Part shown: piece after piece, positions 20,819 through 63,408 of the stretch
Layout of the letters: each line of letters opens with the position of its first letter
Position numbering within the stretch: position 1 is the first letter of the stretch
NCBI GenBank assembly: GCA_020425925.1
Contig: JAGQRB010000304.1
Span: forward strand, 5,243-69,242
DNA length: 64,000 nucleotides
Origin: Planctomycetota bacterium
Lineage (GTDB): Bacteria > Planctomycetota > UBA1135 > UBA2386
Reading direction: 5' to 3'
Notes under the pieces: generated by a model
What the model was told of the DNA's origin: nothing
Databases searched by the model: none
Seen by the model: the letters and a program-made list of their open reading frames with translations, nothing else
Made by a program: the position numbers and the translations under genes

Positions 20819-20821
20819 CTC

Positions 20822-36287: not shown

Positions 36288-38873
36288 TCACGGAGAGATC
36301 GCGCGCACCGCCCGCACGCCGATGCGCGGCGACTTGCGGAACGGCTGTAGCGAGTTGCGTGACGCGACGCGGCTCAGATGGCTGCCCTCCGCGAAGTCGC
36401 CGCCACGATGCATGCGCACGGTCGGCGGATCGTCCTCGGCGATCGGCTCGCGCAGCCCGTCGCCGGGTCGCGTCGGACGCACGTAGGAGACGAGCCAGTC
36501 GCGACACCACTCCGCGACGTTGCCGTGGACATCGTGCAGACCGAAGGCGTTGGGGTGGAAGGAGCCGACCGGCGCGGTGTGGGGATAGCCGTCGTCGAGA
36601 CCCGCTTCGATCCGTGCCCCGACGATGCCGCGGGCGCTCTCGTCGGCGAGGTTGGCGCAACGATCGAGTTCTTCAGGATCGTTGCCGCAGGCCCAGATCG
36701 TCGCCGTGCCGGCGCGGGCGAAGTACTCCCATTGCGCTTCCGTCGGCAGCACGAGGCCGTGGTGGGCGAGCGCGTCCGCGGCCTCGAACCAGGTGATCTG
36801 TTCGACGGGATGACGCAGGTCGACTCCGGGCACGCTGGTCGCGCGCGATACGAAGCTCGGGCGCTCGCCGGTGAAACGCAGCCACTGGCCCTGGGTGCAC
36901 TCGTGTTTCGCGACGAACAGCGCGTCGAGGTGCAGCTCGTGCACGAACTGCTCCATCGGGGCCGCCCCCGGATCGATCGGTGCCTCGCCCGAATGCTCGT
37001 CGCCGACCGGGATCGCGCCGATCACGAAGCGGCCGGCAGGAACCAGGACGAAGACCATGCCGGTGTCGATCCCGATCGCGACCGCGGTGAGCCGTCCTTC
37101 GGCATCGCGTTCGGTCACCGGTGCGGCGCCGCTCTCGACGTGCCAGAACTCGTAGAGGCCGGAGTTCGCATCGATGCCGAGTGGCACCAGGCCGACCTGC
37201 GGCCCGGGCAGCCGCAGGCCCGCGTAGGCCGGACAGATCGTGGGATCGGCGATCGCCGCGATCGCATGTCGCCAGCTGTCGCCGGCCTCGACGAGACTAA
37301 CGCGGCCGACCCGCTCGGCCTCGGCCCGGCGGTGGGCGATGCCGGCGAGGTTGTCGATCGCGGGGGCCGCGGCGGCGAGCTCGTCGAGCCCCGTGATCAG
37401 GCGCTCGAGCACCTGGCGCTGGTAGCCGAGCTCGTCGCGGCGCTCGGCGTCGACGACGGTGGCGAACTCGGCGGCGAGCTCGACGGCGCGCGCCTCGAGA
37501 TCGCTGCGGCGCCCGAGCAGCGTCCGCGCACGCTGCTGCCACTGGTCGAGTCGCTCGATGTTCGCGGGCCACGGCGGCCAGAGCTCCTCGCGGGCCTCGA
37601 TGCGGAGATCCTGCAGGCGCTTGTCGTCGACGAGGCGACGGTAGTCGTTCCAGTTGGTCTCGGCGCGATCCCAGAGCTGCGCGAACACGACCAGGCCGGC
37701 GACCAGCACGAGGGCGAGTCCGCCGCTCAACGCAGCCGCGAGGCGGTGGCGCCGGAGGAACCTGCCGCCGACGTAGGTCCAGGTCGGCGGCCGCGCAGTG
37801 ACCGGCTCGTGGCGTCGAGCGCGCCGGACGTCGTGCTGGAACTCGCGCACGGTGGCATAGCGCCGCTCGGGCTCGATCGCGAGTCCGCGCAGCGTCACCC
37901 AGTCGAGATCGGACGGCAGCTCCACGGCCGTGGTGCGGGTCGGGCGTTCGGGCACCGTGGCCCACTCGGCCGGGTCGCCGCCCGATACGGGGCCGCGGGG
38001 CAGCCTGCCCGTCAGCATCTCGTAGAGGATCACCGCCAGGGCGTAGACGTCGCTGCGGGCGTCGGCGCTGCCGGCGTCACTGCATTGCTCCGGGCTCATG
38101 TAGCCGAGCGTGCCCATCGCCGAGTTCGCCGCGGTGTGAAGCGGCGCGGGGCCGTCGCCGGGATCGAGGAAGCGCGCGATCCCGAAGTCGATGACACGCG
38201 GTTCGGGCCCGTCCGAGCCGTCGACCACGAGCACGTTCGACGGCTTGAGATCGCGGTGGATGATCCCTTTGCCGTGCGCGTGTTGGACGGCGTCGCAGAG
38301 ACCGTCGAACAGATCCAGGCGGGCCGCGATCGTCGGCTGCGGTTCGCGCGCGACCCAGCTCTGCAGCGGCGTTCCGTCGACGAGGTCCATCACGAGGTAG
38401 GGCCGGCCGTCGCGCAGGTGGCCTCCGTCGAGCACGCGAGCGATGCCGCGATGCTGCAGCCGCGCGAGCGCCTGCTGCTCCGCCTGGAACCGCAGCCGTC
38501 CCGTCGGCGTCGAGGCCGTGCCCTTGAGCACTTTGATCGCGACGTTCCGCCGCACCGGGTCGCGCTGCGTCGCGCGATACACCCGACCCATGCCGCCCTC
38601 GCCGATCTCGTCGATGATCTCGTAGGGCGGAACCGCGGGCACGACATCGACCACGCGGTCTGCGATCGGCGAATGGAACCGAGTCTGCGTCTGCTCGCGA
38701 TCGGCCGCCAGCAGCGCGAGGACTTCGGCGGCGAGCCCGTCGGCATCGGCCTCTCCTGCGCACGTTGCGAGCACGTACTCGCGCCGCCGCTCGCAGGGCA
38801 GCGCCAGTGCCCGGTGGAAGAGGTCGGAGATCAACTCCTCGCGGCGGTCGGCCTGTTCGCGATCGCGTGGCAC
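36288..38873 (-). CDS. Membrane Ser/Thr protein kinase with an extracytoplasmic coiled-coil and a C-terminal FGE-sulfatase (SUMF1-like) domain
   Basis: Hanks motifs are present: GEGGMGRVYRA, VAIKVLK, HRDLKPSNVLV, DFGIA, GTLGYMSPE. There is a TM helix (LAAALSGGLALVLVAGLVVFA). FGE motifs are HPVEQITWFEA, LPTEAQWEYFARAG, GLHDVHGNVAEWC, RGGDF and IGVRAV. GTG start. Confidence 0.9.
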   Translation of the reverse strand: MPRDREQADRREELISDLFHRALALPCERRREYVLATCAGEADADGLAAEVLALLAADREQTQTRFHSPIADRVVDVVPAVPPYEIIDEIGEGGMGRVYRATQRDPVRRNVAIKVLKGTASTPTGRLRFQAEQQALARLQHRGIARVLDGGHLRDGRPYLVMDLVDGTPLQSWVAREPQPTIAARLDLFDGLCDAVQHAHGKGIIHRDLKPSNVLVVDGSDGPEPRVIDFGIARFLDPGDGPAPLHTAANSAMGTLGYMSPEQCSDAGSADARSDVYALAVILYEMLTGRLPRGPVSGGDPAEWATVPERPTRTTAVELPSDLDWVTLRGLAIEPERRYATVREFQHDVRRARRHEPVTARPPTWTYVGGRFLRRHRLAAALSGGLALVLVAGLVVFAQLWDRAETNWNDYRRLVDDKRLQDLRIEAREELWPPWPANIERLDQWQQRARTLLGRRSDLEARAVELAAEFATVVDAERRDELGYQRQVLERLITGLDELAAAAPAIDNLAGIAHRRAEAERVGRVSLVEAGDSWRHAIAAIADPTICPAYAGLRLPGPQVGLVPLGIDANSGLYEFWHVESGAAPVTERDAEGRLTAVAIGIDTGMVFVLVPAGRFVIGAIPVGDEHSGEAPIDPGAAPMEQFVHELHLDALFVAKHECTQGQWLRFTGERPSFVSRATSVPGVDLRHPVEQITWFEAADALAHHGLVLPTEAQWEYFARAGTATIWACGNDPEELDRCANLADESARGIVGARIEAGLDDGYPHTAPVGSFHPNAFGLHDVHGNVAEWCRDWLVSYVRPTRPGDGLREPIAEDDPPTVRMHRGGDFAEGSHLSRVASRNSLQPFRKSPRIGVRAVRAISP

Positions 38874-38890
38874 AATGCGAGTCTACCGCG

Positions 38891-52040: not shown

Positions 52041-55000
52041 CTACGACCCGCCTTGGGTCCCGTTCGTGACCATGTGCTTGAGGCCGGAAGGCGCGGTCGA
52101 GTCCTCGCCGCCGACGACCTCGAGCACGCCGTCCAGGTTGCTGTCCGACACGATCACCTGCAGCGGATGGCTGGAGTCCTGATCGAGTGGCGATCGGATC
52201 ACGCGGACATCGGGTTGCTCGTTCGGGCCGGAGATCGACTGCAGCAGTCGGATCTCGCTCCGAGTGCCTTCGGGGTCGTCGTCGTCGATCAGCAGGAAGC
52301 CACCTGCTCGCGAGTCGCGTCGTCGGTCGAAAGCGAAGGCCCGCACCGCGGATTCTGCAAAGGGCGCCTCGAACTCGGCGAGCGTCGTGATCGCGGCCGG
52401 CCGACCGACGCCCTTCGTCGGATCGGGATCCTGCTCGATGCAGAGCACCCGGAAGACGACGGAGTCGTTGGCGAGCTGCTCGGTCGTCAGCACGCACAGA
52501 TCCTCGAATGCGTCGCTTCCGACCGAGGCCTCGGCGATCCGGACCACGTCTTGATCGAGCGTCACGACCCGGGTCGCGTAGTTCATGTGCGACTCGAACA
52601 CGATGATCCTGGTGTGGTCGTTCGCGTCCACGACGGCGATGTCCTGGGTCGCGCGCTCGCTACCCTCGCCTGTCGGTGACAACGGTTCGCGCCGAACGAG
52701 CGCCATGCCGGCCTCGACGTAGAAGCCTCCCGGCCAGGCCGAGAACGCTTCCGGCGACGGCGCGTTGGCGAGATCGATGGAGAAGAGCTGTGCACCCGAC
52801 GATCCGGTCGGCGGCGGTTCGACCAGTCCGATCAGGTCCTTGATCTGGTGCGCGGTCGAGGTCGGCCGCATCCAGGCGCGGACGTCGAAGAGCCTGCCGT
52901 TCGCGGCGAACGTGAAGTCGTACGCGGGGCTGACGGTCAGATCCGGTGACCCGAGACCGTCGAGCCGGTCGATCGTTCCGACGCCCGATGCGGGATCGAA
53001 TGCGAGCACATCGGTCGAATCCTCGTTCCCGCCGAGGTGGATCCGCTCGACGCGGTGGATCGTGTGAGAGCCGCCGCGAAAGCCGCCGATCGTCGGTGTG
53101 TAGCTGCCTTCGAGGTTCGCCAGGTGCAGGCGACCACCCGTGATCAGATCGTCGTAGCCATCGCGGTTCGCGTCGATCAGGCCGGGACGAAGCGAGCGGT
53201 AGAACGGATTGCCCGCCGATTGCTGGAGCTCCCCGAGCCGGCCCGCGACGCTCGACAGCGAGGAAGCGAGATAGTTGAAATGACTCGGGTCGGAACTCGA
53301 GTTGCCGACCGACTCGCACGTCAGCAGATCGAGCCGGCGATCGCCGTTCACGTCGGCGAGCTGGAACCTGTCGGCCCAGGTGTTTCCGGCATCGTTCGGC
53401 GGCGGCTGCAGATCGTGGGGATCGAGCGCCCGCAGATCCTCGACGATCCGGCGCCACTCACCGACCGGTCCGGCATCCGGCGCGAGCAGCCATACCTCGG
53501 CGGCTCGCTGCCCCTGGCCGTACGGGCGACTCAGCACGGCGAGCAGGTCCGAGCCGGGGATACCGCCGCTGCTGCCATCGAGGTCCTCGGCGAAGATGCG
53601 CTGCAGGTTCCAGCTGCCGGCGCTGACCTCGGGGCCATCCGCAGGCGCGATCGCCCGCCAGGAGGCCGCGAAACCACCGCTCGCGGTTCGATCGAGCAGG
53701 TGCACGTCGAGGCGATGACGGGTCGTGCTGCCGACGCGGGGAAGGAGCTCGCGGACGAGCACGAGCCCGCGTTTGCCGTCGCCGGGGTCCCAGCCGGCCA
53801 GCCGCCAGACCCTCGCGTCGTCGTCGGCTGCTTCGATCGCAGGGGCTCGCGGCAGGGCTTCCGGGGTCGCGGAGATCGCCAGCGGCGGCGTGCTGCCGGA
53901 CAGACCGATGTGCCACATGTGCAGCAGGCCGTGCCCGGGGGAGAGGAACTCGGTCCCGGCGTTGCCGAGGACGACTTCCCAGGTGCTCGGGTCGCCGTCG
54001 AACTCGCCGCCGACCGTGGCGATCCGGATCGGTACGTCCATCGGAGGAGCCGAGACGAGCGGGATCGTCGCCTGTTGGTTCTGGACGTACCAGTCCTGCT
54101 GCGGATCCAGCACGACGGCGTTCAGTTCGACGTCGAGGTTCGCGCCGGACCTGACCCAGGTGGTGAACATCGCCACGCGGTAGACCCCGTTCGCACCGGT
54201 GAGCTCGAATGCGAACGCCTCGTCGCCGGGGGTATGGTCGGCCGTGGCGCCGGGGAGGAGCGCTCCCGTCGGCATGCAGATGCCGCCGCAGCTCTTCGGC
54301 CAGCTGACGTAGTAGAAGTTCCTGGCGGCGCGAACGATGCAGTCGGGCCCCATGGCGGAATCCGTCGCCACGATGCCGGTCACCCCATTCGAGAGGCCGA
54401 GGTCGAATGGCGGCGGTGGGGGCAGGATCTGCCGGGCTGCGAACTGTTGGCTCAGGCCGACCAGCGTTTCCTGCGTATTGGCGCCCTTCCGCGTGAAGAA
54501 CAGGTCGCGAGTTGCGCCGTCGGGCTCGCTGCCCGGCCAGACGTGGATCGCATCGGGCAGCAGGTTGGCGCGGAAACTCACGAACGGATTCGTGTTGAGC
54601 ATCGAGAAGCCCGCGCGGATCGCGGTCTCGAGCGGAGAGCCGCGGCGAGCCGCCGTGACCCTCACCTCGGCGACTCGCGGATCGGAGAAGCGCAGACCCA
54701 GGCCTTCGTCGCGGACGACGTTCCAGACGAAGAAGTGCGTCTTCCGCTCGAGTGGGGCGAGCGCGACGAGGGTCTGCGACTGCGGGTCGCCACGCTCGAA
54801 CGGCGTCGCCGGCCGCCAGGCGCCGTCGATGCGGTACTCGCCGCGCAGGTCGACCTCCATCGCCTGGGTCGGTGAGGGGTTGCGCAGGTCGAGAACGACG
54901 GGCAGCCGCAGCCACGGAGACCCCGGATCATCGGGTCTGGTGAGCATCGCGCTCGGATCGACGATCGAGGCGGCCTGGATCAACGGGGCGTAGCCGACGT

Positions 55001-55946
55001 TCGCGTTGGGCTCGGCGAGGCTCGACACGGTCTCGGCTTCGAACGGTGCGACCGTGCCGCTGCCGCGCTCCGCCGGGTAGACCTCGCGGTGCCGGATGCG
55101 CAGCCAGAGTCGCTCGTGCTGCCCGAGCGGGATCGAGTTGGTCGGAACGAGCGGATCGATCGTGAACTCGAGCGCGGATTCGACGAAGCCGTCGGGCCTC
55201 GGTTCCTGGAGGCCGTTCTGTCGCGCGACCTCCCCGAGGACCACCCAGTCCGTGGACGTCGGTGCTGCCGACGTCAGCGCGAATGCGAACTCGAACTCGG
55301 TGATGTCGCGGTCGCCGCCGCGGTCCAGCAGCGTCGCCGCGACGACGAACTCGCTCTCCGGGTCGGTGGCAGCTTTGCGGGTCAGTTCGACATCGGCGAG
55401 GTTGCCGAGCTCGCGGCCGATCGTCGCGTTGGTGAGCAACGGCCGCTTCGCCGCTACTGCCCGTGCGAAGCCGGGCGGTCGACTGGCGTCGACGAACACC
55501 GCGTCGAGGTCGACGTTGCGCACTTCGACCCGGCCCAGCGTTCGGCCGTGCTGCCAAAGGAGCAGATAGACCTCGACCGTCGCGGACGTGGCGAGTTCGA
55601 AACTGTCGCCCGAACTCGCGAGGGGCAGCGGGTTCGATGCGGCGTCGATCCGCTCGACGTCGGACGGCGGGACCTTCCGTGGGCCTTCACCGTCGCCGAG
55701 ATCGTATTCGAGGCGCAGGCGGATCGGGCGGGCCTCGGGCCGATTCACGGCGATCGCGATCAGGGTCGCGTCGTGCGCGACCTGTATCGAGGCTTGTATG
55801 GGCCCGGGAACGACGCTGGCTTCGCTGAGCTCCGGGGTGTCACGACCCTGCGCGTCGTCGACCACGAGTCCGACTACGGCCGGACCACACGCGGAAGCGC
55901 CGAGCAGCGATGCGAGCGCCGCGAACCTGATGATCGTTGTGGTCAA
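52041..55946 (-). CDS. Giant (~1300 aa) lipoprotein with FG-GAP/VCBS-like Ca-binding repeats
   Basis: TTG at 55946 is preceded by a perfect AGGAGG 8 nt upstream and gives LTTTIIRFAALASLLGASAC, with lipobox L-G-A-S-A-C. An in-frame ATG at 56018 is the alternative start. DVNGDRRLDLLT, DANRDGYDDLITGG and EDLDGSSGGIPGSDLLAV resemble FG-GAP loops. Confidence 0.8.
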   Translation of the reverse strand: MTTTIIRFAALASLLGASACGPAVVGLVVDDAQGRDTPELSEASVVPGPIQASIQVAHDATLIAIAVNRPEARPIRLRLEYDLGDGEGPRKVPPSDVERIDAASNPLPLASSGDSFELATSATVEVYLLLWQHGRTLGRVEVRNVDLDAVFVDASRPPGFARAVAAKRPLLTNATIGRELGNLADVELTRKAATDPESEFVVAATLLDRGGDRDITEFEFAFALTSAAPTSTDWVVLGEVARQNGLQEPRPDGFVESALEFTIDPLVPTNSIPLGQHERLWLRIRHREVYPAERGSGTVAPFEAETVSSLAEPNANVGYAPLIQAASIVDPSAMLTRPDDPGSPWLRLPVVLDLRNPSPTQAMEVDLRGEYRIDGAWRPATPFERGDPQSQTLVALAPLERKTHFFVWNVVRDEGLGLRFSDPRVAEVRVTAARRGSPLETAIRAGFSMLNTNPFVSFRANLLPDAIHVWPGSEPDGATRDLFFTRKGANTQETLVGLSQQFAARQILPPPPPFDLGLSNGVTGIVATDSAMGPDCIVRAARNFYYVSWPKSCGGICMPTGALLPGATADHTPGDEAFAFELTGANGVYRVAMFTTWVRSGANLDVELNAVVLDPQQDWYVQNQQATIPLVSAPPMDVPIRIATVGGEFDGDPSTWEVVLGNAGTEFLSPGHGLLHMWHIGLSGSTPPLAISATPEALPRAPAIEAADDDARVWRLAGWDPGDGKRGLVLVRELLPRVGSTTRHRLDVHLLDRTASGGFAASWRAIAPADGPEVSAGSWNLQRIFAEDLDGSSGGIPGSDLLAVLSRPYGQGQRAAEVWLLAPDAGPVGEWRRIVEDLRALDPHDLQPPPNDAGNTWADRFQLADVNGDRRLDLLTCESVGNSSSDPSHFNYLASSLSSVAGRLGELQQSAGNPFYRSLRPGLIDANRDGYDDLITGGRLHLANLEGSYTPTIGGFRGGSHTIHRVERIHLGGNEDSTDVLAFDPASGVGTIDRLDGLGSPDLTVSPAYDFTFAANGRLFDVRAWMRPTSTAHQIKDLIGLVEPPPTGSSGAQLFSIDLANAPSPEAFSAWPGGFYVEAGMALVRREPLSPTGEGSERATQDIAVVDANDHTRIIVFESHMNYATRVVTLDQDVVRIAEASVGSDAFEDLCVLTTEQLANDSVVFRVLCIEQDPDPTKGVGRPAAITTLAEFEAPFAESAVRAFAFDRRRDSRAGGFLLIDDDDPEGTRSEIRLLQSISGPNEQPDVRVIRSPLDQDSSHPLQVIVSDSNLDGVLEVVGGEDSTAPSGLKHMVTNGTQGGS

Positions 55947-56095
55947 GGCGGCTTCCTCCTGCAGAGCCGGGGAGTGGTTGATGCAGTCTCCCGGGACCAG
56001 TCTAGCCGCTCGCCGCAACGAGGCACAGCGACGGGATCCGGCGTTGGGATCGATGCGATGGCTCGGCTCTTTCGCGTGCGCCGTTCGCTCCTACA

Positions 56096-58108
56096 ATGCG
56101 AGCCATGGAAGGCGAGCCTTACCGCCCGTCGTGCGTCGTGGCCTCGTGGCTCGCCGGAGTCGTGTCGCTGTGGCTGGCCACGGCCACGCCCGGACAGCGC
56201 GCACGAGCGCAACGGCCCACCCGAGGCGAACCGGAGTCGACGGTCCTGTCGCCGGCCGATCGGCGGGCCTGGCGGAGCGACTACCTCGTCCGATCGGACG
56301 AGTTGGAAGCGGCAATCGCGGAGAAGCAGCAGCTTCTGCAGGCCATCGACAAAGTGCTGGAAGCCACGCCGCGCGACCACCCCGGGCTCGAGTCGCTGCG
56401 AGGCGTCCGCGCGGACGTTGCCGATGCAGAGGGCGCGCTGGCGGGGCAGCGGGCGCTCGTGCGGCAAGTGCTCGAGGGCCTCTACCTCGCAACGACCGCG
56501 AATCGGGACGGGGTACCGTCCGAGGTCGCCCACTTCGACATCGCGATAAGCGAGACGGCGCTGGTGAAAGCCCTCCTGGCTCGCTGCGGGGCCTTCGAGG
56601 ATCAGGTCAAACGGTGGGAGCCTCCCCGCTTGGAGATGCTCGAGCGGCTGGCGAACGACTCCCCGTTCCCCGAGACGGTGCGCGAGCGCCTGAGCGGAAT
56701 CGTCCCGGAAGAACGGGGTCGCCGCGCCGGCATCCTCGAGACGGAGAGAATCAGACTCACGGGGGGAACCCCGCCCCGGCAGATCCTCGAAACGCTCGAG
56801 GCATCGAAACACCTGTTCGAACAGGAGCCCGAGTTGTGCGGCGTCTGTCGTCGCGCCAGCGAACTGGCGTCCGCGGTCGAAGCGGGTTGGTCGCGCGCCA
56901 GGGCCGATCGTTTCGCGAGGATCCGGGGGCTCGCGCGCACGCTGGAGCTGGTGGACGACGAACCGGCGGAACTGCAATCGTGGAAGGTCGCGCGGCTCGA
57001 GCGGCATGCAGAGGATTGGGTGGGGGAGCTCGAGCGCGATCTGAAGGCCCTCCGGGACGGCTACTTCGAGAACTGGCAGGCGCTCGATGCGAAGCCGTCG
57101 TACGAGCGCGGTGACAGCCCTATCGTGGCCAGCTGCCGCGATCAGCGCGGCCGCTACGCGGAGCTGTTGGAGCAGCTTCGGGCGTTGCGCTCCGACCTGC
57201 CGCAGCTCGCGCCGCTGCTCAGGAACCTGCAGGCCCCGCCGGTCGAGAGTCTGCCGCCGATCCGGTTGCGCGAGTTCCCTGCGACGTGGAGCGGCGAAGC
57301 GCGACGACTCTGGCCCGAGCGCTTCGGGCCCGTCGGTCAGCGACGAAACGTCCGCTTCGAGCACGGCTATTGGTTCGTCGAGGGGCGCTCGACGGAGATG
57401 GTGCTGGTGCCACCGCGGCTCGAGCGGCCACCGGTCTTCTCGTTCGCGGGGGCGTGCACCGTGCCCGCCGTGCTGCTGCCGCCGCGCGTGCTGGCGCCGT
57501 TCCTGGTCGATCGGACTGAGGTCACCTGTAGTGAGTTCTGCGCGCGGATGAGCCGCGACCCTGGCGCGCGAACCATCGCGCTCGACCGCTGGTGGAACGA
57601 GCATCGCTTCAGCGTGTCGGCGTCCGTCGAAAGCGATCCGATGGCGTTGATCCACGGCATCAGCTTCGTGGTGGCGCGGGACTTCGCCGCGACTCTGGTC
57701 CCGGGTCTCGACCAGCCGCTGCGATTGCCGACCTGCGCGCAGTGGGACGCGGCCTGGGATCTTGCCGGGCTCGTCGCCACGCCGCTCGAGGTCCCCGATG
57801 CGAGTCAACTCGTCATCGAGCCGTCGGTCCCTGCGGACTCGACCGCTGGGTCGATGGCGATCCGCGGGCTCGACGGGGGGGTGGCGGAGTGGTGTCGCTT
57901 CGATGGCGAGATCAGGGTGGTCGTGTCCGGTGTTTCCCTGTTCAAGCCCTGGACCGACGTCCGCGGCGGCTTCGAGGCCTGGGAGTCGGCGATGGACGAG
58001 TACTTCGGCGATCCCCGGCGGCGATCGGAGCGCCCCGCCTATCTGTGCGCCCCGGCCTACGGGTTCCGATGTGTCTACGAGCTCCAGGAGGACCCATGGC
58101 AACGATGA
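56096..58108 (+). CDS. Membrane-anchored coiled-coil protein with a degenerate C-terminal FGE-sulfatase-like domain
   Basis: The N-terminal hydrophobic segment is CVVASWLAGVVSLWLATA. A long helical, charged region follows. The C-terminus has VDRTEVTCSEF, LRLPTCAQWDAAW, GLDGGVAEWC and YGFRCV, which mirror FGE-sulfatase motifs. It was preferred over the antisense ORF 55943..58102. Confidence 0.75.
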   Translation: MRAMEGEPYRPSCVVASWLAGVVSLWLATATPGQRARAQRPTRGEPESTVLSPADRRAWRSDYLVRSDELEAAIAEKQQLLQAIDKVLEATPRDHPGLESLRGVRADVADAEGALAGQRALVRQVLEGLYLATTANRDGVPSEVAHFDIAISETALVKALLARCGAFEDQVKRWEPPRLEMLERLANDSPFPETVRERLSGIVPEERGRRAGILETERIRLTGGTPPRQILETLEASKHLFEQEPELCGVCRRASELASAVEAGWSRARADRFARIRGLARTLELVDDEPAELQSWKVARLERHAEDWVGELERDLKALRDGYFENWQALDAKPSYERGDSPIVASCRDQRGRYAELLEQLRALRSDLPQLAPLLRNLQAPPVESLPPIRLREFPATWSGEARRLWPERFGPVGQRRNVRFEHGYWFVEGRSTEMVLVPPRLERPPVFSFAGACTVPAVLLPPRVLAPFLVDRTEVTCSEFCARMSRDPGARTIALDRWWNEHRFSVSASVESDPMALIHGISFVVARDFAATLVPGLDQPLRLPTCAQWDAAWDLAGLVATPLEVPDASQLVIEPSVPADSTAGSMAIRGLDGGVAEWCRFDGEIRVVVSGVSLFKPWTDVRGGFEAWESAMDEYFGDPRRRSERPAYLCAPAYGFRCVYELQEDPWQR

Positions 58109-59079
58109 AGTCGCTGCGCTCCGGCCTGCTCGCTGCGGGCTTGGGGCTGCTCGGCGCCTGCGCGGCTCCGAAACGCGTCGAGGGACCGCCGGCCAACCTG
58201 CGAGTGCTCGTCCTCGGCCTCGAGGATCCCGAGGGCCATTCCTTCGGGGAACGGGTTCTGCGCGGCTTCTCGGGGAAACTCGTCCAGGCGTTGGGGCGAA
58301 CCGACGGCGGTCTCGAAGCCGCGGTCGCAGTCCGGATTCCGAACTCGTCCGTGCCGCTCGAACTCGACTGCGAGAACGCCGACATCGTCATTCGCCCGAT
58401 CTGCCCGATTCGACCCGAGATCGAGGTCCGGGAGACGCGCTGGGGTTGGGCGCTGTCGCTGCCGCTGTGGATGGGCACCTGGATCCTCGGTCTCGTGATC
58501 GAAGACTGCCAGCTGTCGTTCGGTGACCGCTTCCGGCTCGAGTTCGAGATCGCGCCCGGCGGTGAACCGAGAGCCCCGTTCTACAAGCACAGTGTGGTGC
58601 CCGAGCCGATCCCGCTGACATTCTGGGAGCGCAACGATTTCTGGAGTTGGCCGACGGTGCTCACGCTGTTCTGTCCGCCCGTCATCCTGCCGTCGAAGGA
58701 TGTTCGCGGCGACGAACTCGTGGCGAGCGTGGCGCGCCAGCTCACCGTCTTCCTCAAGAACGACTTCGAGAGGGCGGCGTTCGAGCAGGGGGCCGGCAGC
58801 ATGGAACTCGAGTGCCGATCCTGCGACCACGACGCCGGCAACTTCGAGCTCGCCGGGACGATCCGCAGTCGCCGGGCCCCGATCGCGGAGGTGTTCGCGA
58901 CGATCGGCGGCCGGATCGTCGCCCTCGACCCGATCGCCGTACCGGGGGAACACGACGCGGTCGCGATATCGGCGACGTTGCCGTTTCCGCCCGAGCTCCC
59001 GGAAGGAGAGGCGCTCGATATCGTGGTGCGCGCGAGCTCCGACCAGGCGTTCTCGCGGACGCTGCGCGTCGTCCGATGA
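58096..59079 (+). CDS. Hypothetical lipoprotein
   Basis: AGGAGG lies 5 nt upstream of the ATG. MATMKSLRSGLLAAGLGLLGAC has lipobox L-L-G-A-C. It overlaps the upstream gene by 13 nt. Confidence 0.7.
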   Translation: MATMKSLRSGLLAAGLGLLGACAAPKRVEGPPANLRVLVLGLEDPEGHSFGERVLRGFSGKLVQALGRTDGGLEAAVAVRIPNSSVPLELDCENADIVIRPICPIRPEIEVRETRWGWALSLPLWMGTWILGLVIEDCQLSFGDRFRLEFEIAPGGEPRAPFYKHSVVPEPIPLTFWERNDFWSWPTVLTLFCPPVILPSKDVRGDELVASVARQLTVFLKNDFERAAFEQGAGSMELECRSCDHDAGNFELAGTIRSRRAPIAEVFATIGGRIVALDPIAVPGEHDAVAISATLPFPPELPEGEALDIVVRASSDQAFSRTLRVVR

Positions 59080-59080
59080 A

Positions 59081-61975
59081 TCAACGCTCGGGCTGCGGAT
59101 CGGTCGGCAACTTCTGCGACGTTCGGCTGCAGTAGAGCTCGAGCAGCTCTTTGCCGGCAAGCCGCGTCCCGCCGTCCGTCGGGATCGGGCGAGAGGGTGT
59201 CCAGATGCGAATCTCCTGCCCCCTTTCCTGATCGTGCACCGTGAGCAGGTAGACGCCATCGCGGCTGTAGGTTGCCCGCACGACCCGATCGAGCACGTCG
59301 AGTTCCGTGTCTCGCTTCCTGGTCGCAACGTCGAAGAACATCGCCGTTCCGTCCTCGGACACCGTGAATACGCGGTCATTGCCGAAACCGAACGTCGCGG
59401 CGGTCACCGCCTTGAGGTGGCCTTCGAGCTCGGCAACGAGGTGCCCGTCCTGGGCGGAATAGACCCGAGCGACCTTGTCCTCGCATGCCGTGACGATCCG
59501 GGAGCCGTCGGGCGAGAAGGACACCGCCGTCGGGATCGCGCCGGCGGCAATCGGGTCGGACTCGGGCAGCGTGCCGAGGCGCGTCGTCCCGTCCCACGAC
59601 ACCGTGGCGAAGCGATCGCCGCCGATCGCGAGGTCGAGGACGGCGCGGGTGTGGCCATGGGTCACCCTTCTCTGGGCCTTCTCGGCATGCAGCTGCCACA
59701 GTCCCACTTCGGCCGACGAGGAACTCGCGGCGAGCCAGCGGCCATCGGCACTGAAGCGCAGATTGCCCGGGACGCCGCCGAGGAGGTCGCCCGGGATGCC
59801 GGGCGCCTCGGGGTCGACCGTCAAGTCGATGCTGCGCCAGCGCGCGTCGGCGAATCGCCAGAGGGCAACCTGACCGGCCGCATCGGCGGTCGCGATCGCC
59901 GGACCGGGGCCGAACTCGATCACCCGGATGTCGCTGGTCGACGACAGCTCCTCCGCTGCGGCTGCCGTCGTGTTGCCGACCTTCCAGACCCGCAGGCCGT
60001 CGTCCGCGGCGGCGGCGACGAGCCGCCCGTCGGCGCTGAGGGCCGCCGTGCGGCAGTCACCCGGCATCACCCACTCGGCTGGCTCGCGCGAATACTCGAA
60101 CGTCAGCACGCGGGCTTCGCCCTCGGTCGACACGACGAGCACTCGGCGCGAGTCCGGCTGCGTCTCCTCCGTTGCGAAGGCCGCGACCCGAAATGCGACC
60201 GGAGCGTGGTCAGCCGACGGCCATCGGTGCAGCAAGCCGTGACGCCAGATCCTGTCGACCTTGCTCTCGAGCTCGGGCGGAGTGCCTCGCAGCTTCGCGA
60301 GCCGCAGACCAGCGAGGTCGTAGTCCTCCGCAGCCAGACTCTCGTTGGCCCGCTGCAGGATCTCCTTGTCGAGCTCGGCCTCGGCTCTCGATCGTTGGCG
60401 CGCAAAATAGGTATAGACCAGGATCAGGAGCAGCACGAGCGCGAGAACGCCGGTCACGATCCAGCGCACGCCCTGCCAGAACTTGTTGCTCCGCTCGCGC
60501 TGCCGCTCGCGTTCCGCGTCGGCCTCGCTGTCGCGGAAGAACCGATGGGCCGTTTCGAAGTCTTTCGCCGTGACCTCGTGGCGTTCGGCCCACGTGGCGT
60601 TCGGTCGGTTCGCTTCCACCCAGGCGCGGGTCAGCGCGAGTCGTGGGCCCTGGAGCCAGCTGCCCTCGCTACGGGCCTTCTCGCGCGCGCTCTTGACCAG
60701 GTCGCGCAGCCGATCGCGCGCGCGACGTTCGTCGTCGACCCATCTCGACAGCAGTGGCCACCGACGGATCAGGCTCTCGTGCGAGATGTCGACGCGCGGG
60801 TCCGCTTCGCTCGCATCGGAGAAGTAGACCAGACAGCGATCCTCGGCGCGGAACGGGTCGAGCACCGCGAGGATGGCCGCTTTCGACAGATTCGTGATCG
60901 CCTCGATCTCGCTGATACGGGCCGGGCGGCGCACACGGCGGTTGTTTTCGTCGGTGTCGGTCAGGCAGCGGAACACCTTCTGTGCGTCGGCCGCGTCGCA
61001 CAACGCGAGCGCTTCCCGGGCATCCTCGCTGAGCGCGAACGCGAGTCCGCCGGCGGTGTCGAAGTCGTCACGATCGATCCGTCCTGCCGCGCCTGCGGCC
61101 TGCCAGAGCTTCCAGGCGCGGAACAAGGCGTGTTGCAGGATCGGCAGCCTGTCCGAGCGGCTGCCGAGTTCGTTGAGCAGATAGTCGACGAGCCGCGGCG
61201 CCAGGTCGGTGCCGACGCTGCGCGCCGGTCCCGCGATCGCCTGGCGGAGCTGCTGTCGCGTCAACCGGGGCACGAGATAGCGCCCGCGGTTCATGGCCTC
61301 GGGAAGCCCGTAGAAGACGTCGCAGTCGCCGAGGAAGTCCGTACGCATCGTCAGCACGGTGTAGACCGGCAACTGTGACTCGCGGCCGAGCCGCACGATG
61401 AGGTCGACGAATGCCGCGGCTTCCTCGCGTTTCCGCGCGTCCTCGGCGGCGCGTGCCGGTGATACCGATCCGACGCGCACCGTGTTGTCCGTGTCGTCCT
61501 CCGGCGGACGGAATGCGAAGATCTCCTCGAACTGGTCGATGAGCAGCAGCAGGTTGTCGCGTGCACCGACCCGGCGCTCGATCCGGTCGAGAACCGCCTG
61601 TGCGTGCCGCTCGTGGATGTCCGCGAGCAGCGCATCGACGTCCGCCGCTGCCGGGGTTTCGTCATCGCCGGTCAGCAGCGCTCGCGCGAGATTGCGCAGC
61701 GGGGTGTCGCCGGGTTTGGCCTTCGCCACCTGCCACGAATCACGGCGTTCGACGAGGAACCCGGCGCGGAGCGCAGGGATCAGGCCGGCGCGGATCAGGG
61801 ACGATTTGCCGCATCCCGAGCTGCCGACGACGGCGAGGAAGCGGTAGCGATCGAGCGACGCGAGCAGCTCCGACGTCTGTTCGCGGCGGCCGAAGAAGCG
61901 GCGGATGTCCTCCGGCGTGTCGTCGAACGGTCGGAGGCCGACGAACGGGTTCTCGGTTGTGGCGACGCTCGTCAC
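59081..61975 (-). CDS. STAND (NACHT-like) P-loop NTPase with a single TM helix and a C-terminal WD40 beta-propeller
   Basis: GTG at 61975 overlaps the TGA of the TIR gene (GTGA). NPFVGLRPFDD...FFGRREQTSELL, Walker A VVGSSGCGKSSL and Walker B LLLLIDQFEE are present. The TM helix is WIVTGVLALVLLLILVYTYF (about 60404-60475). WD-like blades include LSADGRLVAAAADDGLRVW, FSADGRWLAASSSSAEVGLW, GHTRAVLDLA...TVSWDGTTRL, FSPDGSRIVTACEDKVARVY and GHLKAVTAATF...TVSEDGTAMFF. Confidence 0.9.
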   Translation of the reverse strand: MTSVATTENPFVGLRPFDDTPEDIRRFFGRREQTSELLASLDRYRFLAVVGSSGCGKSSLIRAGLIPALRAGFLVERRDSWQVAKAKPGDTPLRNLARALLTGDDETPAAADVDALLADIHERHAQAVLDRIERRVGARDNLLLLIDQFEEIFAFRPPEDDTDNTVRVGSVSPARAAEDARKREEAAAFVDLIVRLGRESQLPVYTVLTMRTDFLGDCDVFYGLPEAMNRGRYLVPRLTRQQLRQAIAGPARSVGTDLAPRLVDYLLNELGSRSDRLPILQHALFRAWKLWQAAGAAGRIDRDDFDTAGGLAFALSEDAREALALCDAADAQKVFRCLTDTDENNRRVRRPARISEIEAITNLSKAAILAVLDPFRAEDRCLVYFSDASEADPRVDISHESLIRRWPLLSRWVDDERRARDRLRDLVKSAREKARSEGSWLQGPRLALTRAWVEANRPNATWAERHEVTAKDFETAHRFFRDSEADAERERQRERSNKFWQGVRWIVTGVLALVLLLILVYTYFARQRSRAEAELDKEILQRANESLAAEDYDLAGLRLAKLRGTPPELESKVDRIWRHGLLHRWPSADHAPVAFRVAAFATEETQPDSRRVLVVSTEGEARVLTFEYSREPAEWVMPGDCRTAALSADGRLVAAAADDGLRVWKVGNTTAAAAEELSSTSDIRVIEFGPGPAIATADAAGQVALWRFADARWRSIDLTVDPEAPGIPGDLLGGVPGNLRFSADGRWLAASSSSAEVGLWQLHAEKAQRRVTHGHTRAVLDLAIGGDRFATVSWDGTTRLGTLPESDPIAAGAIPTAVSFSPDGSRIVTACEDKVARVYSAQDGHLVAELEGHLKAVTAATFGFGNDRVFTVSEDGTAMFFDVATRKRDTELDVLDRVVRATYSRDGVYLLTVHDQERGQEIRIWTPSRPIPTDGGTRLAGKELLELYCSRTSQKLPTDPQPER

Positions 61976-63408
61976 GACAGCAACGGCTCGAGGGTCTGCG
62001 GATCGAAACCGTCGACGTTGACCGCGACGTGGACGTCGAACGGCTTGAAGCTCAGGTCCTTCTTCTCCTTCTGCGGGGGCGCGGCGTACACCGCGATCTT
62101 GCGCTCGAGCTCGTGATCCCAGATCAGCTTGGTGGCGGCCTCGAGGCGCGCGCGAACCCAGTCCCGCGAGGCTTCGCCGAAGACGATGATGAAGAGCTGG
62201 GACTGCAGGAAGCGCTCCGTGAACTCCTGCATCGAGGGCTCGGCGGCCGAGAGCATCGGCCTGATACTGCGTCGATTCAGGTAGTCGACCATCGGTGCGG
62301 CGTTGCCGAGGTCCTTGGAGTAGAGGTCGACGAGCGCCGTGAGCGTGCCCTGCTCGACCACTTCCTGACGCCGGGCTTCCTCGATCTCGGCCTTCTTCGC
62401 GAGAATCTCGTCCAGCATCCGGTGCTTGTCGGTGCGCACTATCTCGAAACGCTTCGGCTCGCGCTCGCGTTCCTCGAGCTGGGTGAGGAAGTCCCGGTCG
62501 GCCGGATCCTCGATACGCCCGATCACGATCTCCTGCGGCTGGAGCACGAGTTGCGAGCGCGCATGCTCGAAGCCGATCCGGAGCTGCTCGAGCGGGAACG
62601 TCTTCAGCGGATCTCCGTCCACCTCGATCTGCGCGCCCGAGCCCTTGCCGAGCAGGTGGACCGTGAGGTCGGCGCGCTGCACCGCCGCCGCGACGCTGGT
62701 GGCGTGTTCGGCCGGCTCGAACGGCGGGGGAGCATGTGGCAGAACCCGGACGCCTTCGCGCTCGAGGTCGCGCTCGAGCGACCGCGCCAGGGCCTCCATG
62801 TCGTCGGCCGCGTGCGACAGGAAGACCTCGAACGCTGCTTCGGCTGGCGGCGCACCGGCGTTGCCGGCGAAGAGCTCGAGTGCCTCGCTGAGCTCCTCGG
62901 CGAGCGTTCCCATCGCCTTGTCGTAGTCCTCGCTGTCGGGCTTCAGGTAGTCGCCGATCCGATCTTCGCCGGGCGGCACGTTGTGGAACGCGTGTCCCGA
63001 GGTGCCGGGCAGGACCTTGCTCCATTCCTCGTGCGGGATGTTCTGCGTCAGCACGACGATGATCCGGCTGAAGGTTCCGACGCTCAGACCCTGCGGCTGC
63101 GCCTTGGCGCTGGCGAGGAAGAACTCGCGCTCCTTCGTGCAGTAGGGTGACGACTTGAGATAGGTGGCGCTGACCAGGACGACGAGAAAGCGCGAGCCCG
63201 CGAGGGCTTCTTCGATCGCGGGGCCGAAGTTCTGGCTGCGTCGGAGCTGCTTGGTGTCCTGCCAGACGTTGATGTCACGGCGTCCCGTGATGCGTCGCAG
63301 TCGCACGTCGAGCTGGCGCTCGAACTGCTCCACCCACCCGGATGCCTCGTTGTCGACGTGGGCGTAGCTGACGAACACGTCGATCTGCGGGTCGTGCGAA
63401 GGGCTCAT
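61972..63408 (-). CDS. TIR-domain protein with two further TIR-like/flavodoxin-like modules
   Basis: IDVFVSYAHVDNE...FLVVLVSATYLKSSPYCTKEREFF has the TIR_2-type beta-A strand and the S-x-[WY]-C-x-x-E motif. The second module is EVFLSHAADD...ADLTVHLLG and the third is LFIIVFGEASRDWV. I prefer the start at ATG 63408, because the 26 codons up to the alternative ATG at 63486 have poor GC3. Confidence 0.85.
   Translation of the reverse strand: MSPSHDPQIDVFVSYAHVDNEASGWVEQFERQLDVRLRRITGRRDINVWQDTKQLRRSQNFGPAIEEALAGSRFLVVLVSATYLKSSPYCTKEREFFLASAKAQPQGLSVGTFSRIIVVLTQNIPHEEWSKVLPGTSGHAFHNVPPGEDRIGDYLKPDSEDYDKAMGTLAEELSEALELFAGNAGAPPAEAAFEVFLSHAADDMEALARSLERDLEREGVRVLPHAPPPFEPAEHATSVAAAVQRADLTVHLLGKGSGAQIEVDGDPLKTFPLEQLRIGFEHARSQLVLQPQEIVIGRIEDPADRDFLTQLEEREREPKRFEIVRTDKHRMLDEILAKKAEIEEARRQEVVEQGTLTALVDLYSKDLGNAAPMVDYLNRRSIRPMLSAAEPSMQEFTERFLQSQLFIIVFGEASRDWVRARLEAATKLIWDHELERKIAVYAAPPQKEKKDLSFKPFDVHVAVNVDGFDPQTLEPLLS

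Follow-up and report, generated by a model that had tools for sequence, protein, structure and literature searches.

Gene content and layout of the locus

The window examined here, a 64,000-nucleotide stretch of the genome of a Planctomycetota bacterium (GenBank assembly GCA_020425925.1, contig JAGQRB010000304.1, positions 5,243 to 69,242), carries two overlapping genes, designated gene A and gene B. An earlier reading, made from the letters and their open reading frames (ORFs) and referred to below as the sequence-only reading, had proposed that they encode an effector with three TIR-like modules and a membrane-spanning STAND NTPase with a WD40 sensor. Both ORFs were found where that reading had placed them, on the minus strand, in a region of ~69% G+C, and only one such cassette is present in the window. 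The start chosen for gene A is that of the NCBI record, and the translation is identical to P0001, a TIR protein from a Planctomycetes metagenome-assembled genome (MAG). The overlap claimed between the gene A stop and the gene B start is present as GTGA at 61975-61972, with the TGA of gene A at 61974-61972, the GTG of gene B at 61975-61973 and TG common to both codons. The features of the pair are as follows.

61972 to 63408, minus strand: gene A, 478 amino acids (aa; ORF and translation), predicted cytoplasmic effector subunit consisting of a TIR domain, M2, a linker helix and M3
62854 to 63387, minus strand: M1, catalytic-type TIR domain, gene A residues 8-185 (Pfam TIR_2, 4.9e-21; Foldseek TIR matches)
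63130 to 63132, minus strand: codon of Glu93, predicted catalytic Glu of the CxxE motif (plant TIR alignment and family conservation)
62428 to 62841, minus strand: M2, residues 190-327, TIR/DUF4062-like module in which no catalytic Glu is conserved (TIR_2, 33.3 bits when scanned alone)
62350 to 62427, minus strand: long helix linking M2 to M3, residues 328-353 (DSSP on AlphaFold2 models)
61975 to 62349, minus strand: M3, divergent flavodoxin/TIR-like module, residues 354-478 (predicted five-unit beta-alpha fold)
61972 to 61975, minus strand: GTGA stop/start overlap of genes A and B (read directly from the sequence)
59081 to 61975, minus strand: gene B, 964 aa, predicted bitopic membrane protein consisting of an nSTAND1 NTPase, a transmembrane helix and WD40 repeats
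60680 to 61948, minus strand: nSTAND1 NTPase module, gene B residues 10-432 (PF20703, 2.2e-83)
61802 to 61825, minus strand: Walker A motif of gene B (motif read)
61523 to 61552, minus strand: Walker B motif of gene B (motif read)
60401 to 60463, minus strand: single transmembrane helix WIVTGVLALVLLLILVYTYFA, gene B residues 505-525 (hydropathy scan)
59084 to 60400, minus strand: region after the transmembrane helix, gene B residues 526-964, WD40 beta-propeller, predicted to be extracytoplasmic (Pfam matches at 638-926)

Gene A begins with a TIR domain

An AlphaFold2 model of the gene A product, built from 12 homologues (predicted local distance difference test score (pLDDT) 82.6), contains three alpha/beta modules, M1, M2 and M3. 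M1 is a bona fide TIR domain, as had been claimed: it scores above the cutoffs of both Pfam models, TIR_2 (4.9e-21; 75.9 bits against 28) and TIR (1.7e-7; 31.7 bits against 21.3), and both motifs pointed out earlier are present, DVFVSYAHVD at residues 10-19 and SSPYCTKEREFF at residues 86-97. Foldseek matches at probability 1.00 included the TIR domains of SARM1, RPP1 and SPARTA as well as that of AbTir (7uxu), for which the TM-score on target was 0.69.

The Glu of the second motif had been proposed to lie at the position of the NAD-cleaving Glu, and the alignments agree with this. Glu93 stands opposite the Glu of 'SSWCLDE' in plant TIR NAD-cleaving enzymes (NADases) by sequence alignment, and the alignment to RPP1 chain 7crb terminates exactly at residue 158, E158 being the published catalytic Glu of RPP1. 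When 89 distinct members of the family are aligned, E93, C90 and F97 show 100% conservation, as does the first-strand pattern F-x-S-Y-A-H-x-D. The gene A product is therefore likely to be an NAD-cleaving TIR enzyme, and among its modules only M1 looks catalytic.

Modules M2 and M3

The two further alpha/beta modules that had been claimed are present in the AlphaFold2 models, including a separate model of M2-M3 (pLDDT 86.8), though one of the two first strands had been misplaced: the first strand of M3 is TALVDLY (357-363), and LFIIVFGEAS (405-414), taken earlier for it, is the third. Their TIR-likeness stood for M2 and in part for M3. Scanned alone, M2 exceeds the TIR_2 cutoff (33.3 against 28 bits). 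DUF4062 matches M2 in six of ten family members (best E 3.4e-5); the M2 of the window itself scored 13.3 bits against a cutoff of 24.7 and has no conserved Glu. An M2 profile run against the PDB sequences gave nothing significant, the best TIR match being 4lzp at E 0.5. M3 gave sub-threshold matches to TIR_2 or ThsB_TIR (E 1e-4 to 0.05) in four of five members.

All three modules follow a common pattern of a hydrophobic first strand and an Asp nine residues on (D19, D203 and D366). The profiles of M1, M2 and M3 showed no significant similarity to each other in hhalign (probabilities under 5%), and an internal triplication is therefore not demonstrable by profile-profile comparison. The label 'triple TIR-like' is justified as far as M1 and M2 are concerned, and for M3 it is plausible.

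Conservation across the same 89 sequences was high at Q275 (98%) and H251 (91%) of M2 and at D366 (99%) and W417 (96%) of M3, whereas E274 is variable, and neither module has a conserved acidic residue at the position expected for the catalytic Glu. The Gln275 codon lies at 62584-62586 (minus strand), near the start of the third helix of M2 and roughly where TIR and DUF4062 NADases carry their catalytic Glu. Q275, if it is indeed equivalent in position to the catalytic Glu, may mark M2 as a ligand-binding pseudo-enzyme. Glu-to-Gln is the inactivating mutation employed in the 2026 NIR paper.

In P0002 (658 aa; L003, 5628-7604, and L004, 2365-4341) M2 is duplicated in tandem, indicating that M2 is an independent unit.

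Gene B encodes an nSTAND1 NTPase followed by a transmembrane helix

The STAND NTPase, transmembrane helix and WD40 propeller that had been read in gene B were all recovered. The NTPase belongs to nSTAND1 (PF20703; 2.2e-83, 281.5 bits against a cutoff of 27.1), with model positions 1-370 of 379 covered by residues 10-432, and the Walker A (GSSGCGKS, 51-58) and Walker B (LLLLIDQFEE, 142-151) motifs are intact. The Pfam evidence is thus strong for the TIR domain and the STAND NTPase alike. A single hydrophobic helix lies at residues 505-525, and the C-terminal part matches WD40 (5.7e-19) and many other beta-propeller models at ~638-926. As the NTPase model begins at residue 10, there is no N-terminally fused effector or effector-associated domain (EAD).

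In most of the best 120 gene B homologues the NTPase is directly followed by one hydrophobic helix, at ~480-550, and this helix is kept whether the C-terminus consists of WD40, TPR or HEAT repeats. Some homologues have RDD multi-pass domains or DUF1566. Among 69 complete partner proteins encoded next to gene A relatives, 64 have exactly one transmembrane helix within ~50 residues of the nSTAND1 module.

The two genes form a conserved cassette

Relatives of gene A were sought in one genome per GTDB species, and the best 80 matches were checked as full-length relatives. The 551 genome hits at E<=1e-3 were not used as family size, as the search pattern was the TIR first-strand motif and they may have only a TIR domain in common. 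The 80 full-length relatives come from Planctomycetota, Acidobacteriota, Bacteroidota, Rhodothermales, Calditrichia, Cyanobacteria, Nitrospinota, Verrucomicrobiota, Deferribacteres and Proteobacteria, and cultured carriers include Aequorivita antarctica, Robiginitalea myxolifaciens, Arenibacter amylolyticus, Ilyomonas limi, Maribacter sp. and Leptothoe kymatousa. A first, word-indexed homologue search had indicated a tiny family of 12 proteins; this was an artefact of its sensitivity, corrected by the genome scan and by the exhaustive search described below.

An nSTAND1 ORF, detected with home-built hidden Markov models (HMMs), is next on the same strand in 76 of the 76 genome loci that have downstream sequence, and all close-homologue loci with readable downstream DNA have an nSTAND1 gene immediately after the TIR gene. 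Relatives found with the M2-M3 profile at 21-25% identity again have an nSTAND1 partner downstream, the exception being the degenerate locus L011. The reverse check gave the same picture: two nSTAND1-transmembrane-WD40 homologues picked arbitrarily, P0055 (encoded in the complete Desulfosarcina ovata genome, AP021879.1) and P0016, are each preceded by a gene for a ~500-aa TIR-M2-M3 protein, which overlaps the nSTAND1 gene by 4 bp. The pairing was thus seen at about 90 loci in at least 10 phyla, and chance adjacency of two unrelated genes is ruled out by this number of concordant loci.

The junction is also conserved. In 80 of 84 distinct A/B junctions the two genes are separated by no more than 15 bp, and an NTGA overlap is possible in 43 of the 84 and a 1-bp overlap in 7; tight coupling is therefore a conserved trait. 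The proposal that effector and switch/sensor are separate, coupled genes is confirmed by the GTGA overlap here and by the pairing in relatives, and the neighbourhood comparison that had been suggested as a check found the pair at every related locus with readable downstream DNA. The A-B pair is an obligatory cassette of a large, unnamed family that spans phyla, and not a one-off.

Two genomes carry two cassettes each, L029 and L031 in a Prolixibacteraceae MAG and L060 and L074 in an Acidobacteriota MAG, which suggests paralogous expansion. The L029 partner is ~1,326 aa, and L031 stops at a contig edge before the partner gene. The degenerate copy at L011 (8397-10144) retains only nSTAND1 fragments, ~1 kb downstream of the TIR-M2-M3 gene, and its neighbours include an RHS-like gene and one with a NERD domain.

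M2-M3 is found behind interchangeable heads

An M2-M3 profile was used in an exhaustive HMM search of 1.84 billion representatives of clusters at 50% identity. At E<=1e-3 it matched 2,879 proteins, and at the stricter E<=1e-10 there were 1,534 cluster representatives. Most M2-M3 proteins are 480-520 aa long with M2-M3 starting from near residue 200, and therefore have a TIR domain in front. The majority of N-terminal heads are TIR; others precede the same M2-M3 unit in the following proteins.

P0183, P0203, P0209, P0248 and P0268: CHAT caspase-like protease
P0181: trypsin plus TIR
P0238: ParA-like ATPase plus TIR
P0195: DUF4062

In P0308, TIR-M2-M3 is fused to the start of an nSTAND1 module. 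A metagenome scan with the CHAT-M2-M3 alignment yielded full-length loci, and an nSTAND1 gene comes next in five of the five that have downstream DNA, with a transmembrane helix near residue 500.

Head swapping of this kind beside the same NTPase is how conflict-system effectors and adaptors have been recognised by the Aravind group (PMC7159879; PMC8195603). M2-M3 is best read as a constant, TIR-derived two-domain adaptor and not as extra effectors. The earlier description of gene A as an effector with three TIR-like modules is accordingly still plausible as to the modules themselves, but the CHAT, trypsin and DUF4062 heads make an adaptor the better reading of M2-M3.

At the P0168 locus (JGI 3300056388) an extra 191-aa gene encoding only a TIR domain overlaps the start of the TIR-M2-M3 gene, and a reverse transcriptase (RVT_1) gene lies ~2 kb further upstream.

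Membrane topology and the C-terminal domain

The orientation of gene B homologues was predicted from the Lys and Arg residues counted in the 15 residues flanking the transmembrane helix on each side. The family means are 5.9 for the N-terminal flank and 3.3 for the C-terminal flank, with the N-terminal count higher in 88 of 98 proteins, and a cytoplasmic NTPase with an extracytoplasmic C-terminus is therefore predicted.

The regions after the helix are very diverse among the partners, with one or two WD40 propellers, TPR repeats or other domains, and short unknown domains of 210-250 aa are common in Bacteroidota partners. The L013 partner has WD40 and three PASTA domains after the helix, the L028 partner WD40 and B_lectin, and the L002 partner Peptidase_M15_4. 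PASTA, lectin, M15 peptidase and DUF1566 domains are typical of the extracytoplasmic or envelope side, and the PASTA, lectin and M15 peptidase tails fit an external sensor. The C-terminal domain is interchangeable and diverges fast: the window NTPase is 50-55% identical to its nearest relatives and the outer domain 28-33%, which fits a fast-evolving sensor. The WD40 sensor of gene B is probably outside the cytoplasm, judging from the charge bias and these tails. Of the elements of the model developed below, the outward-facing topology is the least secure, and it would also matter most.

Genomic context

The neighbours of the cassette in the window include the following.

58096 to 59079 (about), plus strand: probable lipoprotein MATMKSLRSGLLAAGLGLLGAC..., no Pfam match
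56096 to 58108, plus strand: 670-aa protein, sub-threshold FGE-sulfatase match (19 bits, cutoff 23.3)
52041 to 56018, minus strand: 1,325-aa protein in which weak FG-GAP-like repeats are all that can be recognised
36288 to 38882, minus strand: Ser/Thr kinase (Pkinase, 2.5e-37) fused to a full FGE-sulfatase (C-type-lectin-fold) domain (1.1e-34)
18311 to 20821, minus strand: second kinase, with TPR repeats

The lipoprotein gene stops at 59079, one nucleotide from the gene B stop at 59081, and the two convergent genes leave no room for a terminator between them. Kinases, a subtilase, a molybdopterin dehydrogenase and surface-type repeat proteins make up the remainder of the window. Elsewhere in the family, a PemK/MazE toxin-antitoxin pair lies immediately downstream of the cassette at L001 (7894-8477).

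Comparison with known systems

The sequence-only reading had matched the pair to no named defence system, and the PADLOC v2 scan bears this out: no system model matches, and gene B gave only weak P-loop matches (mad3 and mad8, E about 1e-3). A literature search that covered few subscription-journal papers found no description of a TIR-M2-M3 plus nSTAND1-transmembrane cassette.

The following candidates were considered and rejected. For PDC-S66 in PADLOC, gene A residues 4-85 match positions 144-215 of the 282-position model, which is the TIR core alone. For the FxSxx-COOH system, FxsC_Nterm (NCBIfam) scored 37.4 bits against a cutoff of 130. For Thoeris, ThsB_TIR scored 18 bits against a cutoff of 21.2, the PADLOC ThsB match (E 0.0015) extends over 29 residues and no ThsA-like gene is present in the neighbourhood. 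For Avs/AVAST and bNACHT, no Avs model matched in PADLOC and no NACHT was found at E<=0.1 among the 25 Pfam families listed. The cassette does resemble Thoeris in having the TIR protein as a separate gene of a small operon; however, it lacks a ThsA-type SIR2, Macro or SLOG effector, and the partner is a STAND NTPase. With Avs and bNACHT it shares an effector, a STAND switch and a repeat sensor, TIR or protease effectors and, by prediction, activation by oligomerisation, whereas those systems have other NTPase families, are single cytoplasmic polypeptides without a transmembrane helix and sense phage proteins inside the cell.

The closest relatives by NTPase are the nSTAND1 systems, nSTAND1 being a STAND clade of conflict systems named by Kaur, Iyer, Burroughs and Aravind (2021, eLife; PMC8195603) and predicted there to be a conflict NTPase with TIR, caspase or trypsin effectors and lectin-fold sensors. 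The cassette has in common with them the PF20703 NTPase, variable repeat or lectin sensors, alternative TIR, caspase or trypsin effectors and the predicted logic of NTP-dependent activation. In the systems of PMC8195603, however, the effector or an EAD is fused N-terminally and EAD pairs link separate effectors, whereas in the cassette the effector is separate and translationally coupled and its two-domain adaptor has no counterpart on the NTPase. A transmembrane helix, an external sensor and a separate TIR-M2-M3 gene are not mentioned in PMC8195603.

DUF4062 (NIR) is a TIR-like NADase fold found in Swarozyc, Vulcan, Vesta, Evangelion, some Avs2 and human TEP1 (2026 preprints), and TIR and DUF4062 NADases are switched on by oligomerisation (bioRxiv 10.64898/2026.05.01.722283). 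In TEP1 and NWD1, and also in NWD2, NPHP3, Swarozyc, Vulcan and DUF4062-Avs2, a TIR/DUF4062-like domain stands just ahead of a STAND NTPase with WD40 or TPR repeats, and the DUF4062-NACHT-WD40 arrangement of TEP1 and NWD1 is the nearest architectural parallel to M2 beside nSTAND1-WD40. The DUF4062 domains of NWD1, NWD2 and NPHP3 showed no NADase activity in vitro (2026 preprints), which fits a non-catalytic role for an M2-like domain. The parallel differs in that those proteins are fused and soluble, and in that the cassette has a canonical TIR ahead of the DUF4062-like module.

Toll-like receptors offer an analogy only: in them, as is predicted for the cassette, an external repeat sensor and one transmembrane helix are joined to a cytoplasmic TIR output with TIR-like adaptor modules. 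Sensor and transmembrane parts are not homologous, there is no NTPase switch, and the TIR domains of Toll-like receptors are scaffolds, not enzymes.

Membrane-spanning STANDs have been seen in defence surveys already, but have not been analysed: a 2025 preprint (bioRxiv 10.1101/2025.11.14.688446) devotes a single sentence to 'transmembrane STAND ATPases', which it names as sensors of Pepco-protease modules. The Pepco-linked proteins are fused to proteases, have no TIR-M2-M3 partner and come without a topology analysis.

Proposed mechanism and alternatives

We favour, with moderate confidence, the view that the cassette is a two-gene conflict module in which a membrane STAND switch controls a TIR effector, and infer that it may have an immune role, either anti-phage or in another conflict. 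Gene B would be a bitopic inner-membrane receptor with the nSTAND1 module in the cytoplasm and the variable C-terminal domain towards the periplasm or envelope. Gene A would be a soluble effector subunit whose M2-M3 adaptor docks the TIR NADase onto the NTPase, and translational coupling would lead to production of the two in a fixed proportion. The outer domain would sense a ligand or an envelope perturbation, and the signal would pass through the transmembrane helix and the juxtamembrane helical region to bring about nucleotide exchange and oligomerisation of the nSTAND1 module. The bound TIR domains would then be clustered, forming active sites, and would cleave NAD+, with depletion or possibly a signal nucleotide leading to growth arrest or cell death.

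A more specific version is put forward tentatively, and we hold it to be possible and no firmer than that. The cassette might be an undescribed surface-surveillance receptor, with a membrane-threaded STAND switch, a sensor facing outward as in a Toll-like receptor and an M2-M3 adaptor recruiting TIR, DUF4062, CHAT or trypsin heads. It would sense attack on the envelope (phage adsorption, lysis enzymes, peptidoglycan damage or competitors) and not intracellular phage proteins.

Several findings weigh against this model or parts of it. Foldseek matches of the M2-M3 model are mostly generic tandem Rossmann or flavodoxin-like doubles (the SIS domains of GFAT, the Rec-Rec pair of PleD and CTP synthase), single-TIR matches are weak, and the predicted fold therefore does not settle whether these modules are TIR-like. 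Homotypic pairing with M2-M3 would need an N-terminal domain that gene B lacks; with no matching domain on the NTPase, unlike EAD pairs, docking would have to be heterotypic. The charge bias of the window gene B is weak, with 5 Lys/Arg in the N-terminal flank against 4 in the C-terminal flank. The L021 partner has a TPR and FHA tail after the transmembrane helix, and, since FHA domains normally reside in the cytoplasm, this tail is in conflict with an external sensor. The neighbourhood of kinases, proteases and dehydrogenases in the window includes no defence genes and does not form a defence island. When the proteins flanking the cassette at about 30 low-GC loci, 144 in all, were scanned with PADLOC, without a background control, there were sporadic matches (caspase in 4 of the 144, together with generic helicases and ATPases) and no clear defence-island signal. 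A tblastn search of plasmid and phage collections with gene A gave no match, so the cassette is not obviously mobile. The genomic context neither supports nor excludes an anti-phage role.

This context bears directly on one alternative, that the pair serves non-immune signalling across the membrane, monitoring the state of the envelope or cell wall or cell contact while the TIR domain makes a second messenger or triggers developmental death. A chromosomal cassette that is absent from the plasmid and phage collections searched and has no clear defence-island context is in keeping with such a system, as are the cell-wall-related ectodomains (PASTA, M15 peptidase, lectin) and the enrichment in the environmental lineages Planctomycetota, Acidobacteriota, Bacteroidota and Cyanobacteria. 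However, a single adaptor on which the head may be TIR, CHAT caspase, trypsin or the DUF4062 NADase bears the signature of conflict effectors (PMC8195603), and several cassettes in some genomes (L029 with L031, L060 with L074), together with sensor domains that are interchangeable and quickly diverging, point the same way. The conserved pair also encodes no dedicated receptor for a signal made by the TIR domain. We consider the non-immune explanation unlikely.

A second alternative is classical intracellular sensing like that of NOD-like receptors (NLRs), in which the hydrophobic segment only tethers the protein or does not span the membrane, and cytoplasmic WD40 or TPR repeats recognise phage proteins, as in Avs or Apaf-1. 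Cytoplasmic sensing by STAND proteins usually relies on WD40, TPR and HEAT repeats (PMC7159879; bioRxiv 10.64898/2026.01.04.697583), and the FHA domain and nearly balanced flank charges described above are in keeping with it. However, a helix of ~21-27 residues between two large soluble parts, seen in the 64 of 69 partners, makes it impossible to place both parts on one side unless the helix is not inserted. The positive-inside bias of the family (88 of 98) and the PASTA, B_lectin, M15 peptidase and DUF1566 domains after the helix also argue against it, making this explanation rather improbable.

That all three gene A modules are enzymatic, or that M2 is the catalytic unit with a regulatory N-terminal TIR, is very hard to sustain: M2 does match TIR_2 and DUF4062, shown in 2026 to be a NADase fold, but the invariant Glu is kept only in M1, the position of M2 nearest the expected catalytic site is a Gln (Q275) beside the variable E274, M3 lacks a conserved acidic residue in the equivalent helix, and M2-M3 also stands behind heads, such as CHAT, that are not NADases.

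Significance

If the surface-surveillance receptor proposed above is correct, the cassette would join NLR-type switching with the topology of a Toll-like receptor, and would raise the question of what bacteria detect at their envelope. One switch would carry either NADase or protease heads by way of an adaptor, giving a concrete and testable docking interface. If the cassette instead proves to be an ordinary cytoplasmic abortive-infection system, it would still be an unnamed and common TIR-STAND defence candidate. The family comprises about 1,500 adaptor clusters at 50% identity and thousands of nSTAND1-transmembrane proteins in at least 10 phyla; as it is large and includes cultured strains such as Desulfosarcina ovata, experiments are feasible and their result should be generalisable.

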